Positions 21,849 through 33,236 of a DNA stretch of 34,141 bases are shown in pieces. A program made the position numbers and the translations under genes. This stretch comes from Archaeoglobus sp. JdFR-37 (GTDB taxonomy: Archaea > Halobacteriota > Archaeoglobi > Archaeoglobales > Archaeoglobaceae). The stretch is taken from NCBI GenBank assembly GCA_002010215.1, contig MTMY01000003.1, positions 124,001 to 158,141 on the forward strand. The letters are read 5' to 3'. The notes beneath the pieces are model-generated. The model saw only the letters and a list, made by a program, of their open reading frames with translations. It was not told the origin of the DNA and searched no databases. Each line of letters starts with the position of its first letter. Position 1 is the stretch's first letter.

Positions 21849-21974
21849 TGGTACCGGTGGTAGAAATTTGTTGAAGAGTGGATGGCCTCTTTGCAGATGG
21901 CCTCTTTTCACCAAACTGTTCACCAAAAAAGATTTATTGTGAGTATGTCATTTCTTATCTCACAAGTGATGATT

Positions 21975-23444
21975 ATGGAGCCAATAATACTTGATACTAC
22001 CCTTCGGGATGGAGAGCAAACGCCAGGTGTTTCGCTGAGTGTTGATCAGAAAGTAATGATAGCCGAAGCTCTGGATAAGCTGGGAGTTGACATAATTGAA
22101 GCCGGTACAGCAATCTCTTCAGAGGGTGAGTTTGAGGCGATAAAAGCAATCTCTCAGTCCGGATTGAAGGCAGAGATCTGCAGCTTCGGCAGGATAAAGA
22201 AAGAAGATATTGATGCTGCCGCCGATGCGGGAGCAGATTCAATCTTCATGGTTGCCCCATCTTCAGACATCCACATTTCCGCCAAGTTCCCCGGCAGAAA
22301 GAGAGAGGACATAATAGAGATGTCTGTGGAGGCCATAGAGTACGCAAGGGAGAGAGGACTAATAGTAGAGTTTGGAGGGGAAGATGCTTCAAGGGCAGAG
22401 TTTAACTTCTTGATGGAGTTGTACAGAGCGGCTGTGGATGCGAAGGCCGACAGGCTTACCTTCACAGACACTGTTGGAGTTTTCACCCCCGACAGGGCCA
22501 TGGAAACCATGAAAAAGATCAAGGCTGAGTTCAAATTGCCGCTTGCTTTCCACGGCCACGATGACTTCGGGCTTGCTACTGCCAACACAATATTCGCCAT
22601 AAGAGGGGGCGCTGACGAGGTACACGTTGCCGTAAATGGGTTGGGAGAACGAGCCGGGAATGCAGCACTCGAAGAGGTCGTGATGGCCCTAGAGTTCCTT
22701 TACGGTATAAAGACAAAGGTGAACAAGCAGGCCATCTATCCAACCTCCCAGCTGGTGGAGAAGCTCACACGCATCGTTGTGCCGCCAAACAAGCCAATAG
22801 TTGGAGATAACGCCTTTACCCATGAAAGCGGAATTCACACATCGGCTCTTCTGAGGGATACCACTACCTATGAACCTATATCTCCTGAGATCATAGGAAG
22901 GAAAAGACAACTCGTTCTGGGCAAACATGCTGGAAGGGCAAGTGTTGAAGCTATAATGAAGGAGTTCGGCTACAGAGCGAGCAAGGAGCAGCTGAAAGAG
23001 ATACTCTCCAGAGTTAAGGAGATTGGCGATAGAGGGAAGAGGGTGACGGATGCTGATGTGAGAGCCATCATCGAAACAGTGCTGCAGATCAGGCATGAGA
23101 AGAAGATAAAGCTTCTGGACCTTTCCATTGTGAGTGGAGTCAACGTAACACCCACTGCAAGCGTCAAGCTCCAGATTAACGGCAGAGAGGTTGTGGAGGC
23201 TGCTGTAGGTCTTGGTCCGGTTGACGCTGCCATCAATGCTATAAAGAAAGCCATATCTGAGTATGCGGACATAGAGCTGGTAAGCTATCACGTAGATGCC
23301 ATAACAGGCGGCACTGATGCTCTCGTTGATGTCGTCGTTCAGCTCAGAAGAGGTGATAAGATAGTCACCGCCAGGGGGGCGAGGACAGACATTATCATGG
23401 CATCCGTGGAGGCGTTTCTTGAGGGCCTGAATATGCTTATTTAA
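21975..23444 (+). CDS. cimA: (R)-citramalate synthase / 2-isopropylmalate synthase family, probably CimA
   Basis: DTTLRDGEQTPG, H.HDDFG.A.AN, GLGERAGNA, HESGIH, LGKHAG, regulatory domain GPVDA; next to ilvBH. Family certain, CimA versus LeuA inferred. Confidence 0.8.
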   Translation: MEPIILDTTLRDGEQTPGVSLSVDQKVMIAEALDKLGVDIIEAGTAISSEGEFEAIKAISQSGLKAEICSFGRIKKEDIDAAADAGADSIFMVAPSSDIHISAKFPGRKREDIIEMSVEAIEYARERGLIVEFGGEDASRAEFNFLMELYRAAVDAKADRLTFTDTVGVFTPDRAMETMKKIKAEFKLPLAFHGHDDFGLATANTIFAIRGGADEVHVAVNGLGERAGNAALEEVVMALEFLYGIKTKVNKQAIYPTSQLVEKLTRIVVPPNKPIVGDNAFTHESGIHTSALLRDTTTYEPISPEIIGRKRQLVLGKHAGRASVEAIMKEFGYRASKEQLKEILSRVKEIGDRGKRVTDADVRAIIETVLQIRHEKKIKLLDLSIVSGVNVTPTASVKLQINGREVVEAAVGLGPVDAAINAIKKAISEYADIELVSYHVDAITGGTDALVDVVVQLRRGDKIVTARGARTDIIMASVEAFLEGLNMLI

Positions 23445-23523: not shown

Positions 23524-24090
23524 ATGAAAATGAAAGCGAAACTCCTGCTTGTGGTGTGTATAGCTGTTTTTGCTGTTTCTGCTATTTACCTTATGACCAT
23601 CGGTGAGCAGAGTACGATAAAAAATGCAAGGGAGCTGATGATGAATGCCAGCGAAGTTGGCGAGGGGTGAGAGAGAAGTCTTAGTTACATGGATGATCCC
23701 GAAGCGACTCTTGAGGAATTTTACAGAAAAACTGGAGAAACCGAATTCGAAATAAGTGAGCTAAAAAAGAACGGTGTGAAGGATGGGTGCATACTAATCC
23801 TGAAGAGGGCTAATTCTCCAAAATCTCTTGCTGAAGTTGATGTCTTCGTCTTTGAAAGCATTGAAGGAGCAGAAGGATTTTTTGAATACATCAAGAACCG
23901 AAGTGAGGCGAAAGACTGGAAGAAACTGGATATTGGAGATGAAACAGTTTTTCATTCTACAGATTCGACGCATATATGGTTGAGCAGAGTGTCAAACGCG
24001 TTCGTCAGAGTAATTGTTTGGAATGGAGAAGCGGGAAGGGAGACTGGTATGAGGATTATCAGTAAGATAGCGGGGAAAATAAAGTTTTGA
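23524..24090 (+). pseudogene. Secreted or membrane-anchored protein gene interrupted by one in-frame TGA (23668-23670)
   Basis: MKMKAKLLLVVCIAVFAVSAIYLM...MNASEVGEG*ERSLSYMDDPEAT... continues in frame into track ORF 23689-24090. Confidence 0.75.
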
Positions 24091-24174
24091 TTGCTAAACT
24101 GGTGATATTTCCTTAGTGCTGAACCCAACAAGTTATTCCAAACACATATTTCGAGAAGACAAAAAACCAGATAA

Positions 24175-24192
24175 CCAAAAATTATTTAAATT
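24175..24192 (+). promoter_or_regulatory. BRE/TATA promoter of the ilvBH unit
   Basis: CCAAAA followed by TTATTTAAA (24182-24190); typical spacing puts the start site near 24213. Confidence 0.6.
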
Positions 24193-24212
24193 ATCCAGTG
24201 GATGCTGCGTCA

Positions 24213-24287
24213 ATGTATATCACACTCCAGGCAGGAACAGAAAGAATGCCGCTTCTTTTGCCTGTAGTACTCGTAGTAATTTGCTAA
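24213..24287 (+). CDS. Putative Leu/Val/Ile-rich leader peptide upstream of ilvB (not in ORF track)
   Basis: [24 protein letters not shown]; 9 of codons 14-23 encode Leu/Val/Ile; second in-frame ATG at 24246. Confidence 0.65.
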
Positions 24288-24327
24288 TCTAATTGGTTGT
24301 AGGTGGTTTTATGAAGAGGTGGGTTTT

Positions 24328-25998
24328 ATGAGGGCTGCTGACGCCATTGTCAAGGCTTTGGAAAAAGAGGGTGTTAAACACATTTTCGGCATACCCGGAG
24401 GAGCCATAATCGAGGTGTACGATGCACTGTTCGATTCAGAGATAAGACACATACTTACCAGGCACGAACAAGCTGCTGTTCACGCTGCTGATGGATACGC
24501 AAGGGCCACAGGAAAGACGGGTGTTGCCTTTGCCACATCGGGACCTGGGGCCACAAATACAGTCACAGGCATTGCAACGGCTTATATGGATTCATCGCCT
24601 GTTGTGGTCATGACAGGGCAGGTTGCCAGGAGCCTGATAGGTAACGATGCCTTTCAGGAAGCGGATATTGCTGGCATAACCATGCCCATAACCAAGCACA
24701 ATTACCTTGTGACGGATGAAAAACAGCTTTTGAAGATAATCAAGGAAGCTTTTCACATAGCTTCAACGGGCAGACCCGGGCCTGTGCTAATTGACCTTCC
24801 AAAAGATGTCACCCTTGCTGACATCGAGTTTGACTATCCTGAGAAGGTGGATCTGATGGGCTACAAGCCCAAGTATGTGGGTCATCCAAGGCAGATAAAG
24901 AGGGCTGCTGAACTCATCATGCAGGCCGAAAGACCGGTTATAATGGCCGGAGGTGGTGTGATACTTTCAAACGCTACTGAAGAGCTGACGAAACTTGCAG
25001 AAACAATCCCGGCCTATGTGGTTACAAGTCTGATGGGGAAGGGAGCCATTCCTGAAACCCACCCCCTCAGCCTAGGCTTTGTGGGTATGCATGGGGCAAA
25101 ATATGCCAATTACGCTGTTCAGGAGTCTGACCTTATAATAGCAGTCGGAATCCGGTTCTCTGACCGAAGCACCGGTAGACTGTCAAGTTTCGCCCCTTAT
25201 GCAAAAGTGATTCATATTGACGTGGATCCGGCAGAGATAGGGAAGAATGTGAGGGTTGACGTTCCAATTGTCGGAGATGCAAAGCTGATTCTCAGAGAAC
25301 TCATCAGGTTCATCCAGTATAAGCAGCGGAAAGAGTGGGAAGAGAAAGTTGAGGGATGGAGGAAGGCATATCCCCTGAGATACAGAAAGGATGACGAGAG
25401 AGTGAAGCCCCAGTATGTTATAGAGAAGATCTACGAGCTTCAGCCCGATGCAATAGTCACAACTGAGGTTGGCCAGAACCAGATGTGGGCCGCCCAGTAC
25501 TTCAAAGTCCACTACCCACGCCAGTTCATAACCAGCGGTGGTCTTGGCACTATGGGATTCGGCTTTCCGGCGGCGATGGGAGCAAAGGTGGCGTTTCCTG
25601 AGAAGACTGTGGTTGACATAGCTGGGGACGGCAGTTTTCTTATGAACATCCAGGAGCTTGCCACGTGCGTTGACTTTGGCATAGCTGTTAAGGTTGTTAT
25701 TCTCAACAACATGTTTCTGGGGATGGTCAGGCAGTGGCAGGAGCTGTTCTACGATGAGCGCTATTCAGCAACATGTCTGAGATGCAAAGAGATGAGCTTT
25801 GAAAAGATTGCAGAGGGATTCGGAGCTATAGGCATGACTGTTGAAAGGCCCAGTGAGGTTGAGGACACGCTTAAGGAGGCGTTTGAGATTGACGATGCTC
25901 CTGTCATCATGGACTTCAGGGTTGACAGGCTGGAGAATGTCTATCCAATGGTTCCGGCTGGAGCAGCGCTGAATGAGATTATAGACAAGGAGGTGTGA
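24328..25998 (+). CDS. ilvB: Acetolactate synthase large subunit
   Basis: [45 protein letters not shown] motifs; ATG 24328 after GAGGTGG SD. Confidence 0.97.
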
Positions 25999-26000
25999 TT

Positions 26001-26489
26001 ATGCGCCACACAATTGCTGTGCTGGTTGAAAATAAGCCAGGTGTGCTGGCGAGGGTGGCTGGCCTTTTCAGGCGAAGAGGCTTCAACATCGAAAGTCTGG
26101 CTGTGGGGACAACTGAGAGGGAAGACCTCTCTAGAATGACTATAGTTGTGAGCGGAGACGACTTCGTGCTGGAACAGGTTATGAAACAGCTAAACAAGCT
26201 CATTGAAGTGATTAAGGTTAGTGATGTCAGCAAGAACAGTGTTGAGAGGGAGCTCGTTCTGATAAAGGTCGCTGCAAATCCCCAGAATAGAGGGGAAATC
26301 ATCGAGATAGCCAGCATTTTCAGGGGCAGAATTGTTGATGTTGCAAGGGATAGCTTCGTAATCGAAGTTACGGGAGATGAAGATAAAATCAATGCCTTTA
26401 TCGACCTCATGAGACAGTACGGGATAAAGGAAGTGGCAAGGACGGGTAAGATTTCGATGCAGAGGGGTTCAAAGGCTCTGCAGGTTTAG
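26001..26489 (+). CDS. ilvH: Acetolactate synthase small regulatory subunit
   Basis: VENKPGVLARVAGLF.RRGFNIESL ACT domain, EVARTG; ATG 26001 after GGAGGTG. Confidence 0.96.
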   Translation: MRHTIAVLVENKPGVLARVAGLFRRRGFNIESLAVGTTEREDLSRMTIVVSGDDFVLEQVMKQLNKLIEVIKVSDVSKNSVERELVLIKVAANPQNRGEIIEIASIFRGRIVDVARDSFVIEVTGDEDKINAFIDLMRQYGIKEVARTGKISMQRGSKALQV

Positions 26490-28863: not shown

Positions 28864-29346
28864 TTAAACCTTGCAACAGTCCTTTGTTAAGTCCGCCATT
28901 TGGACTTCTCTATTATCATCTCGTTCCCCAACAGTAACGCTCTCCAGTATCCTATTAATAAATTCCACGTAAAATTGCCTGCAGCACCTGCCAGACGGAT
29001 TTGTGATGAGGCAATGCCCACCATTTCCTATACCCGTCATTTCCTCCACCTGCTCAACGCTTCTGGCTCCCCTATTTATTGCTTCGATAACATCCTCCTC
29101 TGTAACCTGCTTGCAGTAGCACAACGGCTTTGGTGATCCCTTCTCCTTGAAAAATACCTTTGTCTTGACTTCTTTAACCGTGAACGTAACTGTACCGTTG
29201 AAATACACAACATGGCATTCAGGAGTGGGGCAGAAGTGGAAGTCATCGCTAATCAGGTGCCAGTATTCGGGATTGACATGGCTTCCAACTGTTATTTTCT
29301 TCACTTTCCATCCCTCTGTTCCGCAGATGGGACAAACATACTTCAT
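28864..29346 (-). CDS. Stand-alone CopZ N-terminal-type Zn/[2Fe-2S] (BFD-like) domain protein
   Basis: CPICG.EGW, FC..PEC.VVYF, PLCYC..VT, C..TNPSGRCC; no HMA domain; ends DCCKV. Confidence 0.88.
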   Translation of the reverse strand: MKYVCPICGTEGWKVKKITVGSHVNPEYWHLISDDFHFCPTPECHVVYFNGTVTFTVKEVKTKVFFKEKGSPKPLCYCKQVTEEDVIEAINRGARSVEQVEEMTGIGNGGHCLITNPSGRCCRQFYVEFINRILESVTVGERDDNREVQMADLTKDCCKV

Positions 29347-29984
29347 TTTTCCACCTCCCTGATCTGAATCCCATTATCTGACAGTATCGTAACGACATAG
29401 GGCTTCGGCACCTTTGCCATTATCTCCTGCGGACTGACCAACGATGGGTTGTAAATTACCACAGCCACACCTTTAGCATAGCTGACCTCAGCTTCCATAA
29501 CTCCCTCTGTCTGCAAAAGAGAAGCTCTTATGGCTTCTGCACAGCTTTCACACGTCATACCATCAACTTTCAGCCTGAGTTCCCTCAGCTCTGAGGCTGA
29601 ATTGACGTTAGCGCTGACATCTGTTCCCTCAGATATCGTGGCGGTGACATAGGGTATTATGGCCAAATTGATAACACCAAAGATGGTGGTGAAGGCGAGA
29701 AGGGTTGTGGTTATGAATTTGCTCTCGCTCCTCAACAACTGTTTATAGCTACAGGCACACTGCTTCGCCTTCCTTCGCAGATGGTTCGCGATGGAAAGCA
29801 GAACAAAAGCTATGCCTGCAAGGATAAAGTAGTTTCTGTAGGCTCCCATGGAAGCTGCTAAGCTGAAATTGCCGATGCCAATGAGAAGGAGAAGCAGGGA
29901 GCCGAGACAGCATGCAGACGAGATGAGGCCACCAACTACACCTCTTGTCGTTCCACCGATGCTGCTGATGTCCATTACCATCAC
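29343..29984 (-). CDS. MerT-like transporter fused to a C-terminal HMA (MerP-like) domain
   Basis: SACC in TM1, YR.YF before TM2, CAC in the loop, third TM, then GMTCESC. Confidence 0.85.
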   Translation of the reverse strand: MMVMDISSIGGTTRGVVGGLISSACCLGSLLLLLIGIGNFSLAASMGAYRNYFILAGIAFVLLSIANHLRRKAKQCACSYKQLLRSESKFITTTLLAFTTIFGVINLAIIPYVTATISEGTDVSANVNSASELRELRLKVDGMTCESCAEAIRASLLQTEGVMEAEVSYAKGVAVVIYNPSLVSPQEIMAKVPKPYVVTILSDNGIQIREVEK

Positions 29985-30328
29985 ACCACCTTTTGAAGGG
30001 TTTTCTGGCCAACATCCTCTTCCTTCAGAATCCCGCAGCTGATGAGCTTCTTCTGATATTCAGTCATGTAATCTTCAAGGTCATCCAGAATTTTGCTCAC
30101 TATCTCACTCATCCTGTAAATCCTGTTTTTCCCCCTCTGTTCTACCTCAACGAAACCACAGTTGAGGAGGCATTTCAGGTTGTGGGAAATTCTGCTCTGC
30201 TCGTACCCAAGCCTGTGACATATCTCAGATACGCTCATCTCTCCTTCTCTTCTGAGGAGCGTCACAATGTCGAAGCGGGTTCTGTTAGACAGTACACTCG
30301 CAAAATGTTTCCATGATTCATACATCAT
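29981..30328 (-). CDS. ArsR/SmtB family transcriptional regulator
   Basis: LSNRTRFDI, SVSEI...QSRISHNL.CL..CGFV...GK.RIY; C-terminal SCG. Confidence 0.92.
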   Translation of the reverse strand: MMYESWKHFASVLSNRTRFDIVTLLRREGEMSVSEICHRLGYEQSRISHNLKCLLNCGFVEVEQRGKNRIYRMSEIVSKILDDLEDYMTEYQKKLISCGILKEEDVGQKTLQKVV

Positions 30329-30358
30329 ATGATGCCAATGTCATTTGTTAGTATATAA
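30326..30358 (-). promoter_or_regulatory. TATA box plus inverted-repeat operator for the ArsR-merT/HMA-copZ unit
   Basis: Minus-strand TTATATAC at 30351-30358; CATATGA-N8-TCATTTG (30326-30347) between TATA and start codon. Confidence 0.6.
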
Positions 30359-30442
30359 GGTTTTGCAGGCTGGAGTTTCATGGCTTAATTGAAGATTAAA
30401 TACATCGGACCATATTTAGATATTTTGTAATGGTAAGATTAA

Positions 30443-30460
30443 TTTAGTAGTTGTTCTAAA
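30443..30460 (+). promoter_or_regulatory. Inverted repeat TTTAG-N8-CTAAA, candidate operator of the ArsR-ATPase unit
   Basis: Ends 9 bp before ATG 30470, adjoining an AT-rich TATA-like segment. Confidence 0.45.
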
Positions 30461-30469
30461 GTTTCCTGC

Positions 30470-31054
30470 ATGGGTGAAATATACCAGAAACCCGTCAGGG
30501 TGAAGAGTGTATTGACTATTGACTCTGAAACAGCCAGAGCCCTCGAAGACCCAATCAGAGTAGCTATACTGGAGATTCTCTCAAAAAAGAGTTGTTCCAT
30601 TGTGGAAATTGCCGAAGAATTGAAAAAAATCGGGATAAGAAAAGCTCTCACAACCATTCGACATCATGTTGATATATTGAAAAAAGCAGGATTAATTGAG
30701 CTTACCAAGCTTGAGGACGTGAAAGGAGGAGTTCTGAAGTATTACGCTTCCAATACCAGAGTCCTCCACCAGAACCTGCCTGAAGGGTTCGAAGAGAGGA
30801 TGAAAGAGGCAATAAAGGATGCTAAGGTGGGAATTGAGAAAATTGTAGATGGGCTGGGTGAGAAATACAGAAAAGAGATTCTTGAGGTGGCTAACAGCCT
30901 GAAGCACTGCCCCTACTGCAGCGATGAGCACTTCGTGGAGTACGTTGTAGTTCAGATTCTTAACAGGGCAATTGCTGAGCTTGTCGAAGAGGAGAAGATG
31001 GCTGCTTTGCTGGGTAAAGAGGGGGGTGAAAATGCAGGAAGTGGAGGTGCATGA
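30470..31054 (+). CDS. ArsR-like winged-helix regulator with C-terminal HCPYC..EH motif
   Basis: ALEDPIRVAILEIL, TTIRHHVDILKKAGLI, KYY; overlaps the ATPase start. Confidence 0.88.
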   Translation: MGEIYQKPVRVKSVLTIDSETARALEDPIRVAILEILSKKSCSIVEIAEELKKIGIRKALTTIRHHVDILKKAGLIELTKLEDVKGGVLKYYASNTRVLHQNLPEGFEERMKEAIKDAKVGIEKIVDGLGEKYRKEILEVANSLKHCPYCSDEHFVEYVVVQILNRAIAELVEEEKMAALLGKEGGENAGSGGA

Positions 31055-33236
31055 AAGCAGAATCCTCAGACATCACGTTAAAATAGGAGGGCTGGCTTGT
31101 TCTTTCTGTGTAAGCACCATAAAGAAGGCTCTCTCTGGAGTAAAGGGAGTAAAGAACGTCAGCGTCTCCCTTGTACACGAAGAGGCTCTCGTCGAATACG
31201 ATCCAGCGCTAATTGAACCGTGGGAGATTGATGAGGTGCTTATAAAGCTTGGTTATACTGTCAGAGATCCCAAGAAACTCATGAGCTTTGAAGAGGAGGA
31301 GGCTGAAGTCATACGGGAGAAGAGAAGGCTAATTATCGCAGGTATTATCGTTGGAATCTCGTTATCTATGATGGTTTCCATGTGGATAGGGATGAAGAAG
31401 TGGTGGTTTCCCTATGCCATGTTTTTCCTGGCTCTCCTGATGGTTTTCGTCTTTGGGTGGCCTATACTCAAGATGGCGTATTACTCCCTCAGACGGGGAA
31501 TTTTGAACCAGCACGTTTTAATGGAATTCGCTGCCTTCAGCGGCATAGCTGGCGGTTTGTTGGGTTATGTATTCCCGGAGTTTCCAAGGGCTGATTTCTT
31601 CGCAGTCTCAATTTTCGTCACTGGATACCACATCCTGTCGGGCTATACATCCCTTCTCGTGAGAACAAAAAGCTCACAGGCTGTGAGAAGACTCCTATCT
31701 CTTCAGCCTCCAACGGCAAGGGTTGTGGTGGAGGGAGAAGAGAGAATAGTTCCTGTAGAACGACTTAAGAAGGGAGATATCGTGAAGGTTAAGCCCGGCG
31801 AGACAATTCCGGTGGATGGAGTCGTTGTCCAGGGAGAAAGCGGAGTCAACGAAAGCATAGTTACTGGCGAGTCTCTCCCGGTGGAAAAGAAGTTGGAAGA
31901 TGAGGTCATTTCGGGCTCGATAAACCTAACGGGAGCTCTCCTGATAGAGGTAACCAGAGTTGGAGAGGAGAGCTTCCTTTACAGAGTTGCCAAGTATGTG
32001 GAGGAGGCAAGGGCTTTAAAACCCAGTATTTTGCAGCTTGTTGATAGAATTCTGAAGTACTATGTCCCCTTCGTGATTTTCTTTGCAGTTCTGGGATTTA
32101 TCGTCTGGACTGTAGGTTTATGGATTTTAACTGGAGAACCTGACATCAAAAAGGCCATCTATGCTTCGCTGGCAGCCCTTGTAATGGGATATCCCTGTGC
32201 TCTGGGCATGTCCACACCTCTGGCAATGATAAGGGGTGGTGGGGAAGCAGCGATTAGAGGAATACTCATGAGAAGCGGCGAAGCATTTCAGGTTTTCAAG
32301 GACGTGAAGAAGGTTGTTCTCGACAAAACCGGTACGCTGACGGAAGGTGAGCCGGAAATCGCTGAAATCAGGGTTTTCGAGGGAAATGAGCGCTATTTGC
32401 TTGCTCTGGCTGCATCTCTTGAAAACAATTCGGAGCACCCCATAGCTAGAGCGATAATCAAGGAGGCTGAAAGAAAGAGAGTATCCATCAGAGAGGCCGA
32501 TAATTTCAGAAGTATGGCTGGATTTGGAGTTGAAGGAGTAATAGATGGTAAAAAGGTAGTTATTGGCAGCGTGAGGCTGATGGAGGAGAAAGGGGTGGAT
32601 GTTAGTGATTTCATTGATGACATAAAGGAAATGGAGGAGAAAGGGCAAACCGTTGTCCTTATGGCAGTGAATGGCAGGTTGATCGGTGTGATGGGCATAA
32701 CTGACAGGATAAGGCCTGATGCGAGAGATGCGATTGAGGAAATGAAAAGGCTTGGACTACAACCTGTGATGCTTACAGGGGATGACGAGAGGGTCGGAAG
32801 GGCTGTTGCGGAGAAGCTTGGCATTAAAGAGGTTATTGCAAACGTTTTGCCTGAACAGAAAGCTGAACACATAAGGATGCTTCAGAGAGAAGGCTACAGG
32901 GTTGCCATGGTTGGAGATGGGATAAACGATGCTCCAGCCCTTATGCAGGCCGATGTTGGTGTAGCAATTGGAAGCGGCACAGACATCGCCATAGAGAGCG
33001 CAGACATAATAATCATAGGCAGCAGACTTTCAGCCCTTCTTGATGCCTACAATATAGCAAAGATGAGCTACAACAAGACCAAGCAGAATCTGGCCATAGC
33101 TTTCTCATTCAATGGTATTGGCGTCCCCCTTGCTGTGATGGGCATCGTCCACCCCATCTGGGCAATGATGGCCATGGTGGCAAGCGTGTCGCTGGTTCTG
33201 TTCAACTCTTTCGCAACAAGATTGCTGCAGGTGTGA
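31032..33236 (+). CDS. Heavy-metal P1B-type ATPase with N-terminal HMA domain and YPC motif
   Basis: GLACSFC, TGES, GYPCALG, DKTGT, SEHP, TGD, GDGINDAPAL; ATG 31032 after GGGGTGA SD. Confidence 0.95.
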   Translation: MQEVEVHESRILRHHVKIGGLACSFCVSTIKKALSGVKGVKNVSVSLVHEEALVEYDPALIEPWEIDEVLIKLGYTVRDPKKLMSFEEEEAEVIREKRRLIIAGIIVGISLSMMVSMWIGMKKWWFPYAMFFLALLMVFVFGWPILKMAYYSLRRGILNQHVLMEFAAFSGIAGGLLGYVFPEFPRADFFAVSIFVTGYHILSGYTSLLVRTKSSQAVRRLLSLQPPTARVVVEGEERIVPVERLKKGDIVKVKPGETIPVDGVVVQGESGVNESIVTGESLPVEKKLEDEVISGSINLTGALLIEVTRVGEESFLYRVAKYVEEARALKPSILQLVDRILKYYVPFVIFFAVLGFIVWTVGLWILTGEPDIKKAIYASLAALVMGYPCALGMSTPLAMIRGGGEAAIRGILMRSGEAFQVFKDVKKVVLDKTGTLTEGEPEIAEIRVFEGNERYLLALAASLENNSEHPIARAIIKEAERKRVSIREADNFRSMAGFGVEGVIDGKKVVIGSVRLMEEKGVDVSDFIDDIKEMEEKGQTVVLMAVNGRLIGVMGITDRIRPDARDAIEEMKRLGLQPVMLTGDDERVGRAVAEKLGIKEVIANVLPEQKAEHIRMLQREGYRVAMVGDGINDAPALMQADVGVAIGSGTDIAIESADIIIIGSRLSALLDAYNIAKMSYNKTKQNLAIAFSFNGIGVPLAVMGIVHPIWAMMAMVASVSLVLFNSFATRLLQV

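Follow-up and report, generated by a model that had tools for sequence, protein, structure and literature searches.

A short leader open reading frame (ORF) with a tail of Val, Leu, and Ile codons precedes ilvB in a 34,141-nucleotide stretch of the Archaeoglobus sp. JdFR-37 genome (GenBank assembly GCA_002010215.1, contig MTMY01000003.1, positions 124,001 to 158,141; hereafter the window), and comparison with related genomes indicates that it is very probably an amino-acid sensor that is read by the ribosome. On balance we lean toward premature transcription termination at U-rich RNA as the main output of this sensor, which in Archaeoglobaceae would involve no hairpin. In the comparisons below the source genome is designated G000, and the window is part of its contig C1.

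Leader ORF upstream of ilvB in Archaeoglobaceae

The leader starts with an ATG located 27 nt after the center of the TATA box TTATTTAAA, and its TAA stop codon is separated from ilvB by 40 nt (Table 1). Codons 14-23 (24252-24281) form the presumed sensing tract: nine of the ten specify Leu, Val, or Ile, and Val, which occurs four times, is always encoded by GTA. These features had been described in an initial annotation made from the letters of the window alone and were confirmed by direct reading, as was the assignment of the downstream genes to ilvBH, both products of which passed the curated cut-offs for acetolactate synthase subunits. A shorter leader beginning at the internal ATG at 24246 was rejected; 24213 is taken as the conserved start because the internal codon is ACG in G016, a genome of the same genus.

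The same annotation had predicted that relatives would carry an upstream ORF rich in codons for branched-chain amino acids (BCAA), and this was borne out. The gene ilvB was found in 60 of the 61 searched genomes that we assign to the family Archaeoglobaceae (the genome without a match is 76% complete), and the upstream DNA of all 60 was compared. Promoters were located by a weight matrix, trained on 41 of the same promoters that it scored, and the first ATG 24-34 nt further on was taken as the leader start; this procedure superseded a stricter promoter filter that kept 44 of the 60 loci. A BCAA-tailed ORF was located behind the promoter in 57 of the 60 genomes and in 17 of 18 genera. The distance from the leader ATG to the first T of the TATA core was nearly fixed (27, 28, 29, and 30 nt in 7, 39, 9, and 2 loci, respectively), and the reading frame was kept over leaders of 10-46 codons (18 different lengths) with a free N-terminal sequence and gaps of 12-40 nt to ilvB. 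The three remaining genomes were G026, in which a 10-codon leader is visible by inspection and the matrix picked another site; G048, in which the contig breaks off 20 nt upstream; and G013, in which ilvB lies directly behind a leuA-like gene with no leader, an arrangement seen in no other genome of the family. G002 contained two N-terminal ilvB pieces, of which one was kept (L141) and the other, without a leader (L140), was left out; the leader at L141 (contig C53) has 46 codons and a weak BCAA tail, and G002 yielded several partial ilvB matches.

Across the 57 loci, Leu, Val, and Ile accounted for 333 of 456 residues (73%) in the last eight leader codons, compared with 25.5% in the G000 proteome. 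Val was encoded by GTA in 161 of 178 leader codons, compared with 123 of 1402 in ilvB (30 loci) and 17.5% throughout the G000 genome. The GTA triplets were mostly in the frame of the ATG in all 57 leaders (137 of 138 in a 44-leader subset), which argues that the signal is read as codons. The predicted BCAA-rich tail is conserved, but it is Val (GTA) that dominates the signal, rather than Leu, Val, and Ile in equal measure. G000 has three Val tRNAs (GAC, TAC, and CAC), so that, by the commonly accepted decoding rule, translation of GUA would depend on a single isoacceptor. The tail lies two to four codons before the leader stop, and the last GTA is located a median of 36 nt (range 28-52) from the ilvB ATG, near the ribosome-polymerase spacing of bacterial expressomes. 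The position of the last GTA correlated with the gap to ilvB (rho -0.40 over 57 loci), but this reached only p 0.09 on 17 genus means, and no compensation is claimed. RNA contigs of G043 gave a weak hint of transcription through the leader: in three of four runs the ilvB contig extended 34-46 nt upstream of the leader end, short of the promoter (ends at 356, 368, and 366 of locus L123, with the leader at about 379-323), and in the fourth it stopped at 308; RNA contigs cannot show transcription starts.

Leaders at a second operon and in a second class

When G000 was scanned without bias, the top rank went not to the ilvB leader but to a leader rich in Phe, Tyr, and Trp, MSQFVSIWSYGFYFYYWFSFSY (contig C8, 72022-72090, minus strand), which is followed by genes encoding ADH synthase, dehydroquinate synthase II, dehydroquinate dehydratase, and a fusion of prephenate dehydrogenase, chorismate mutase, and dehydratase. 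The leader was present at all 30 loci inspected, which were the best 30 of 58 family genomes with an ADH synthase match: 28 had at least six aromatic codons within ten, one (L270) had four, and one (L268) was recognized by inspection. Its gaps to aroA' ranged from 22 to 98 nt. Since an aromatic leader heads the aromatic operon and a Leu/Ile/Val leader heads ilvB, leader composition follows the pathway, which is not predicted by an explanation based on general promoter features or on membrane peptides. Repeated Phe-Ser (TTT AGC) codon pairs were observed in the aromatic leaders. At loci L241-L265, including the G000 locus (L241), a conserved AT-rich, TATA-like run with an A-rich tract was found some 30 nt upstream of the ATG of the ADH synthase gene, ahead of the Shine-Dalgarno (SD) motif in long-gap loci, and possibly represents a second promoter. 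G013, which lacks the ilvB leader, also had no ADH synthase match (genome 91% complete).

A second group of leaders was found in a class that we call haloarchaea-like (the class of G067) on the basis of its shared phylum, a GC content of about 0.67-0.72 in the loci printed, and its gene order. The sample comprised 38 loci, namely the best 30 of 81 genomes plus eight others. A TATA-led ORF with GTA-encoded Val in its tail was present at 36 of them, nearly always with Ile-Val-Gly near the stop, and no such leader was found at the two f16 loci. The leader tails used GTA for 41 of 65 Val and ATT for 43 of 51 Ile codons (counts that include one row of the 36, L230, in the wrong frame), whereas ilvB of this class (28 loci) used them for 6 of 1283 and 54 of 669, respectively. 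A GGGG/CCCC hairpin begins directly after the GTA codons and spans the leader stop (mean z -2.96; below -2 at 29 of 36 loci). Between this hairpin and ilvB, a second ORF overlaps the ilvB start by ATGA at 28 of 36 loci, compared with 5.5 of 35 expected from shuffling; this relay ORF (L170-L238) is rich in Thr, Arg, and His and mostly starts 56-113 nt after the leader stop. No aromatic leader was seen directly before ADH synthase at 30 haloarchaea-like loci, where the search covered positions directly upstream, operon heads falling outside it; the gene often stands behind another gene. Elsewhere in the phylum, 62 ilvB loci of other families were inspected, and none had a convincing BCAA leader immediately ahead of ilvB; in 55 of these a leuA/cimA-like gene lies just upstream, and the DNA ahead of that gene was outside the search. 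In one of these families (f9; L162, L175, L185, L204, and L160), a conserved short ORF or motif starting MKNNDKLLI lies between the leuA-like gene and ilvB, ends about 20 nt before ilvB, and has no BCAA tail.

By strict criteria (a promoter ahead of the short ORF, and six or more Leu, Ile, or Val in the last eight codons), the window leader was 1 of 32 candidates in G000, but it ranked only about 10th among 259 looser ones (uncorrected p 4.8e-4), level with another ORF that is rich in these residues but unrelated. Its composition in one genome alone is therefore suggestive but not decisive, and this would be expected of a chance ORF or a non-regulatory relic. Conservation in 57 of 60 family genomes shows that more than chance is involved, and the presence of such leaders in two classes, together with their match to two pathways, renders a chance origin or a relic scarcely credible. 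None of the 259 candidates was a convincing leader for another amino acid, as judged with crude gene calls and unannotated downstream genes; a Thr-rich candidate on contig C16 was rejected for want of a real gene downstream.

Proposed output of the leader and alternative explanations

A scan of the window leader region for terminators composed of a hairpin and a U-tract returned no sites, and the region folded less stably than its shuffles (z +1.84). Conserved structure of any kind was likewise not found in the 57 Archaeoglobaceae leaders (mean z -0.48; 7 of 57 below -2). The statement in the initial annotation that no hairpin-plus-U-tract terminator follows the leader therefore stands for the window and for the majority of Archaeoglobaceae; exceptions are some genera of the family, which have a GC hairpin with U's, and the haloarchaea-like class. 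The annotation had also overlooked the U4 runs (24307-24310 and 24324-24327) that follow the SD-like motifs at 24301-24306 and 24316-24321, as well as a mini-ORF in the same spacer. Runs of at least four T's between 12 nt before the leader stop and the ilvB ATG occurred at 56 of 57 family loci compared with 23 of 97 ordinary G000 spacers, the U fraction of the spacers was 0.47 compared with 0.29, and TTTT was located within 12 nt of the ilvB ATG at 39 of 57 loci compared with 17 of the 543 genes in G000 that have a GGTG motif. G000 also encodes an arCOG00543 KH/beta-CASP nuclease (TIGR03675, 1028 bits; cut-off 580.2), which we take to be the termination factor aCPSF1/FttA. Archaeal termination is described as proceeding at U-tracts with or without aCPSF1, hairpins being unnecessary (PMC13675443, PMC8116511, as far as available), and a 2021 review (PMC8116511) speculates that the ribosome and aCPSF1 bind Spt4/5 in a mutually exclusive manner, which it names as a possible target of regulation.

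Published data from Haloferax volcanii may point to a comparable event at the RNA level. In this organism ilvB1 is HVO_1508, and ilvB1 and ilvC auxotrophs exist (PMC4300041). Just upstream lies an annotated ORF, HVO_1509, of 34 codons including the stop (a 33-codon gene; PMC10117724). Among the putative termination sites in the supplements of PMC7237163 is position 1377114 (minus strand), which is intergenic, 47 nt past HVO_1509, and has a T-stretch motif; a second method in that study placed a 3' end at 1377115 with a mean insert length of 142 nt. HVO_1509 plus these 47 nt amounts to about 149 nt, close to this mean. Leaders of 33 residues were found at two of the three g70 loci (34 at the third), and in all three a T-run followed the stop at a distance of about 40 nt. 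The available parts of PMC7237163 do not interpret the site as attenuation, and neither HVO_1509 nor HVO_1508 was matched in the supplement of PMC7261190.

From the anatomy observed, we infer translation, stalling, termination, and regulation as follows. Transcription would start at or next to the leader ATG, as the promoter spacing suggests, and a ribosome would load immediately on the leaderless mRNA and read the Val(GUA)/Leu/Ile tail. When charged tRNA is plentiful, the ribosome would complete the leader and depart, the U-rich RNA past the stop would be left bare, and RNA polymerase would terminate on it, alone or via aCPSF1/FttA, ahead of ilvB or close to its start. If instead tRNA-Val(UAC) is uncharged (or, as a secondary signal, tRNA-Leu or tRNA-Ile), the ribosome would stall on the tail close behind the polymerase and block termination, so that ilvBN would be transcribed. 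No conserved hairpin would be needed in Archaeoglobaceae; in the haloarchaea-like class, stalling would in addition leave the 5' arm of the GGGG/CCCC hairpin covered by the ribosome. This protection against U-tract or aCPSF1 termination is preferred because of the conserved U-richness, the GTA spacing, the nuclease gene, and the hairpin independence of archaeal termination. As a broader and more tentative proposal, which we consider somewhat less likely than not, this may be an archaea-specific form of attenuation in which leaderless mini-genes are tuned to single tRNA isoacceptors (GUA-Val for ilvB, and an aromatic counterpart for the ADH synthase operon), and stalling alone, with no terminator/antiterminator switch, decides termination by the CPSF73-like nuclease aCPSF1; the haloarchaeal hairpin, the mapped 3' end, and the ATGA-coupled relay ORF would then constitute a two-tier leader.

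The same sensor could instead have a translational output, in which a ribosome at the leader stop blocks or feeds a downstream SD motif, a stall at GUA frees it, and relay mini-ORFs hand ribosomes on to ilvB. An SD-like motif does lie 3-29 nt past the leader stop at 57 of 57 loci, the gaps are as short as 12-20 nt, and many aromatic loci have an SD-like motif soon after the leader stop although aroA' starts 80-98 nt away. The frequency of the ATGA relay ORF in the haloarchaea-like class fits this explanation as well, and mycobacterial leaderless polycysteine ORFs provide a precedent (10.1101/834739, as far as available). The six-codon mini-ORF of the window shares the ATGA geometry of these relay ORFs and may be a relay ORF itself, or may have arisen as a side effect when a ribosome-binding unit was duplicated; within its own family it occurs in only about four genomes, with a counterpart in G016 (GTG start) and similar doubled units in G033 and G059, and was not seen at the other loci. 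On the other hand, the predicted accessibility of the SD motif equaled that of shuffled leaders, and the gain from masking by a stalled ribosome did not exceed that in shuffles (0.03 compared with 0.05 at 37 C and 0.07 compared with 0.08 at 70 C). An SD-sequestering RNA duplex opened by a stalled ribosome gained no support from these predictions. The missing conserved fold also speaks against a translational output, the gaps (12-40 nt for ilv, 22-98 nt for aro) match no single steric rule, and the 3' end in H. volcanii points to the RNA level. We consider a translational output rather unlikely overall. The initial annotation had left the output as either translational or factor-dependent; its translational branch, as sequestration of the ribosome-binding site by RNA structure, found no support, and termination dependent on a U-tract or factor fits better.

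Several observations weigh against sensing coupled to premature termination. HVO_1509 was not detected by Ribo-seq or mass spectrometry (PMC10117724, SuppTable 5A), and its membership in this leader family is presumed from position and length. PMC7237163 reports 1,543 3' ends, and a mapped end of this kind can be a processing site. G013 keeps a U-run near ilvB despite having no leader, and the spacer is a small target (12-40 nt), in which the U4 run next to the start of ilvB would lie beyond the reach of a ribosome stalled at GTA. The background for U content comes from G000 only, and the statistics were computed over related genomes, which are not independent. The haloarchaea-like stem is invariant (none of three consensus pairs with compensatory change in 33 aligned sequences), so its hairpin has no covariation support. 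The interpretation of the Archaeoglobaceae loci draws on sequence. Finally, mutation of the control codons in a similar Streptomyces coelicolor ilvB leader was without effect (PMC1262725, as far as available), and the near-exclusive use of GTA and the aromatic TTT-AGC repeats may reflect a nucleotide motif.

Such a motif, for example GTAGTA repeats, could be bound by a DNA or RNA regulator, with the frame incidental or secondary. The extreme codon restriction, which extends to ATT in the haloarchaea-like class, would be accounted for in this way, and both the S. coelicolor precedent and the undetected translation of HVO_1509 agree with it. However, GTA is in frame with a promoter-positioned ATG in all 57 leaders of 18 lengths, Leu and Ile codons that are unrelated in sequence are enriched too, and an equivalent Phe/Tyr/Trp ORF heads the aromatic operon, which makes a motif-binding regulator improbable. 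A small hydrophobic peptide acting in trans (on the membrane or as an AHAS partner) or as a nascent-chain stall appears more improbable still: all members do have a hydrophobic C-terminal tail, but their N-terminal sequence is unconserved over 10-46 codons, selection acts on one synonymous codon, and none of ten leader peptides belonged to a Pfam or NCBIfam family above its cut-off.

Gene context, known systems, and implications

The coordinates of the element and its neighbors are listed in Table 1. A leuA/cimA-like gene occurred within 1.5 kb upstream of ilvB at 14 of the 56 Archaeoglobaceae loci, at 37 of the 38 loci of the haloarchaea-like class, and at 55 of the remaining 62. In the window, a hypothetical protein with a hydrophobic N-terminus (23524-24090, plus strand) lies between leuA/cimA and the ilvB promoter; it is split by an in-frame TGA (23668-23670), and its distal ORF had no NCBIfam match. 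Further downstream (28864-33236), a gene cluster of heavy-metal type was recognized by eye, presumably encoding copper-chaperone-like proteins, ArsR-like regulators, and a P-type ATPase.

Table 1. Positions of the leader element and neighboring features in the window
Feature	Position	Strand	Basis
Archaeal promoter: purine-rich BRE-like element and TATA box	24174-24181, 24182-24190	+	Sequence; near-identical element family-wide; putative function
Leader ORF, 24 codons, probably leaderless	24213..24287	+	Conserved in 57/60 family genomes
U-rich spacer, 40 nt, candidate premature termination zone	24288..24327	+	Two SD-like motifs, each followed by a U4 run
Six-codon mini-ORF MKRWVL, TGA overlapping ilvB ATG (ATGA)	24311..24331	+	Sequence
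ilvB, acetolactate synthase large subunit	24328..25998	+	TIGR00118, 894.6 bits (cut-off 538.35)
ilvN/ilvH, acetolactate synthase small subunit	25995..26489	+	TIGR00119, 234 bits (cut-off 56.9)
leuA/cimA-family gene, upstream context	21882..23444 (extent of the listed ORF; the gene probably starts further downstream)	+	TIGR02090, 566.2 bits (over cut-off)

For bacteria, leader-peptide attenuation is a textbook mechanism. The enterobacterial ivbL-ilvBN, ilvL-ilvGMEDA, and pheL leaders carry runs of cognate codons ahead of the first committed enzyme, as is the case here, but they are led by SD motifs and use alternative terminator and antiterminator hairpins, none of which was found in the window. 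Escherichia coli tnaC resembles the proposed mechanism in that a ribosome detained on the leader denies a termination factor access to the RNA, and no terminator hairpin is involved; it differs in sensing free Trp via a conserved nascent peptide, whereas the archaeal peptide is unconserved and the factor would be aCPSF1/FttA. The tnaC-tnaA system is named as Rho-dependent attenuation in PMC1262725. Actinobacterial ilvB attenuators (Corynebacterium glutamicum ilvBNC; Mycobacterium and Streptomyces) likewise consist of a short ORF with a run of Ile, Val, and Leu codons before ilvB (PMC11857589, PMC1262725), and the title of a work cited in PMC13158618 indicates that the C. glutamicum leader peptide is formed without a ribosome-binding site. 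In the parts of these sources available, the control codons overlap a hairpin, as in the haloarchaea-like version, and the leaders are equipped with poly-U terminator hairpins, to which C. glutamicum adds an antiterminator, whereas those of Archaeoglobaceae have no conserved fold, a TATA promoter, and a focus on GTA. The mycobacterial polycysteine ORFs (Ms5788A; 10.1101/834739) similarly constitute a leaderless first cistron with cognate codons near the 3' end, and several operons are sensed independently; their output is an RNA duplex that hides the downstream ribosome-binding site, an effect that was not predicted in Archaeoglobaceae.

No sequence homology of the Archaeoglobaceae leaders to curated leader families was detected: four Rfam matches were all under the gathering score, and ten leader peptides gave 0/10 over the cut-off in both Pfam and NCBIfam and 0/10 in an exact look-up in a protein collection. 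Very probably the element behaves as a leader-peptide attenuator, but it matches neither the classical hairpin type nor the SD-sequestering type, and its variable length and free N-terminus do not indicate a conserved arrest peptide that senses a free amino acid. Features of the factor-dependent type were present, namely a presumed termination factor encoded in G000 and an untranslated U-rich tract after the leader.

No description of archaeal amino-acid leader-peptide attenuation was found in the literature covered, which excluded most subscription journals, and this does not prove its absence from print. An older proposal reportedly concerned a Met-Trp mini-leader at the trpY gene of Methanothermobacter. 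In the portions available, archaeal Ribo-seq papers (PMC11456600, PMC10117724, PMC7261190) treat upstream ORFs in general terms only, PMC13158618 cites attenuation from bacterial work only, and PMC7002104 covers only the presence of ilv genes.

The element provides a natural test case for competition between the ribosome and aCPSF1, with two classes, two operons in one genome, and a mapped 3' end in the tractable H. volcanii. If the proposed mechanism is true, it would give mini-genes that are unannotated or termed "hypothetical" a function, place part of the control of archaeal amino-acid synthesis after transcription initiation, and allow coupling and aCPSF1 action to be tested in vivo. It would also mark the first demonstration that archaea naturally use transcription-translation coupling to regulate genes.

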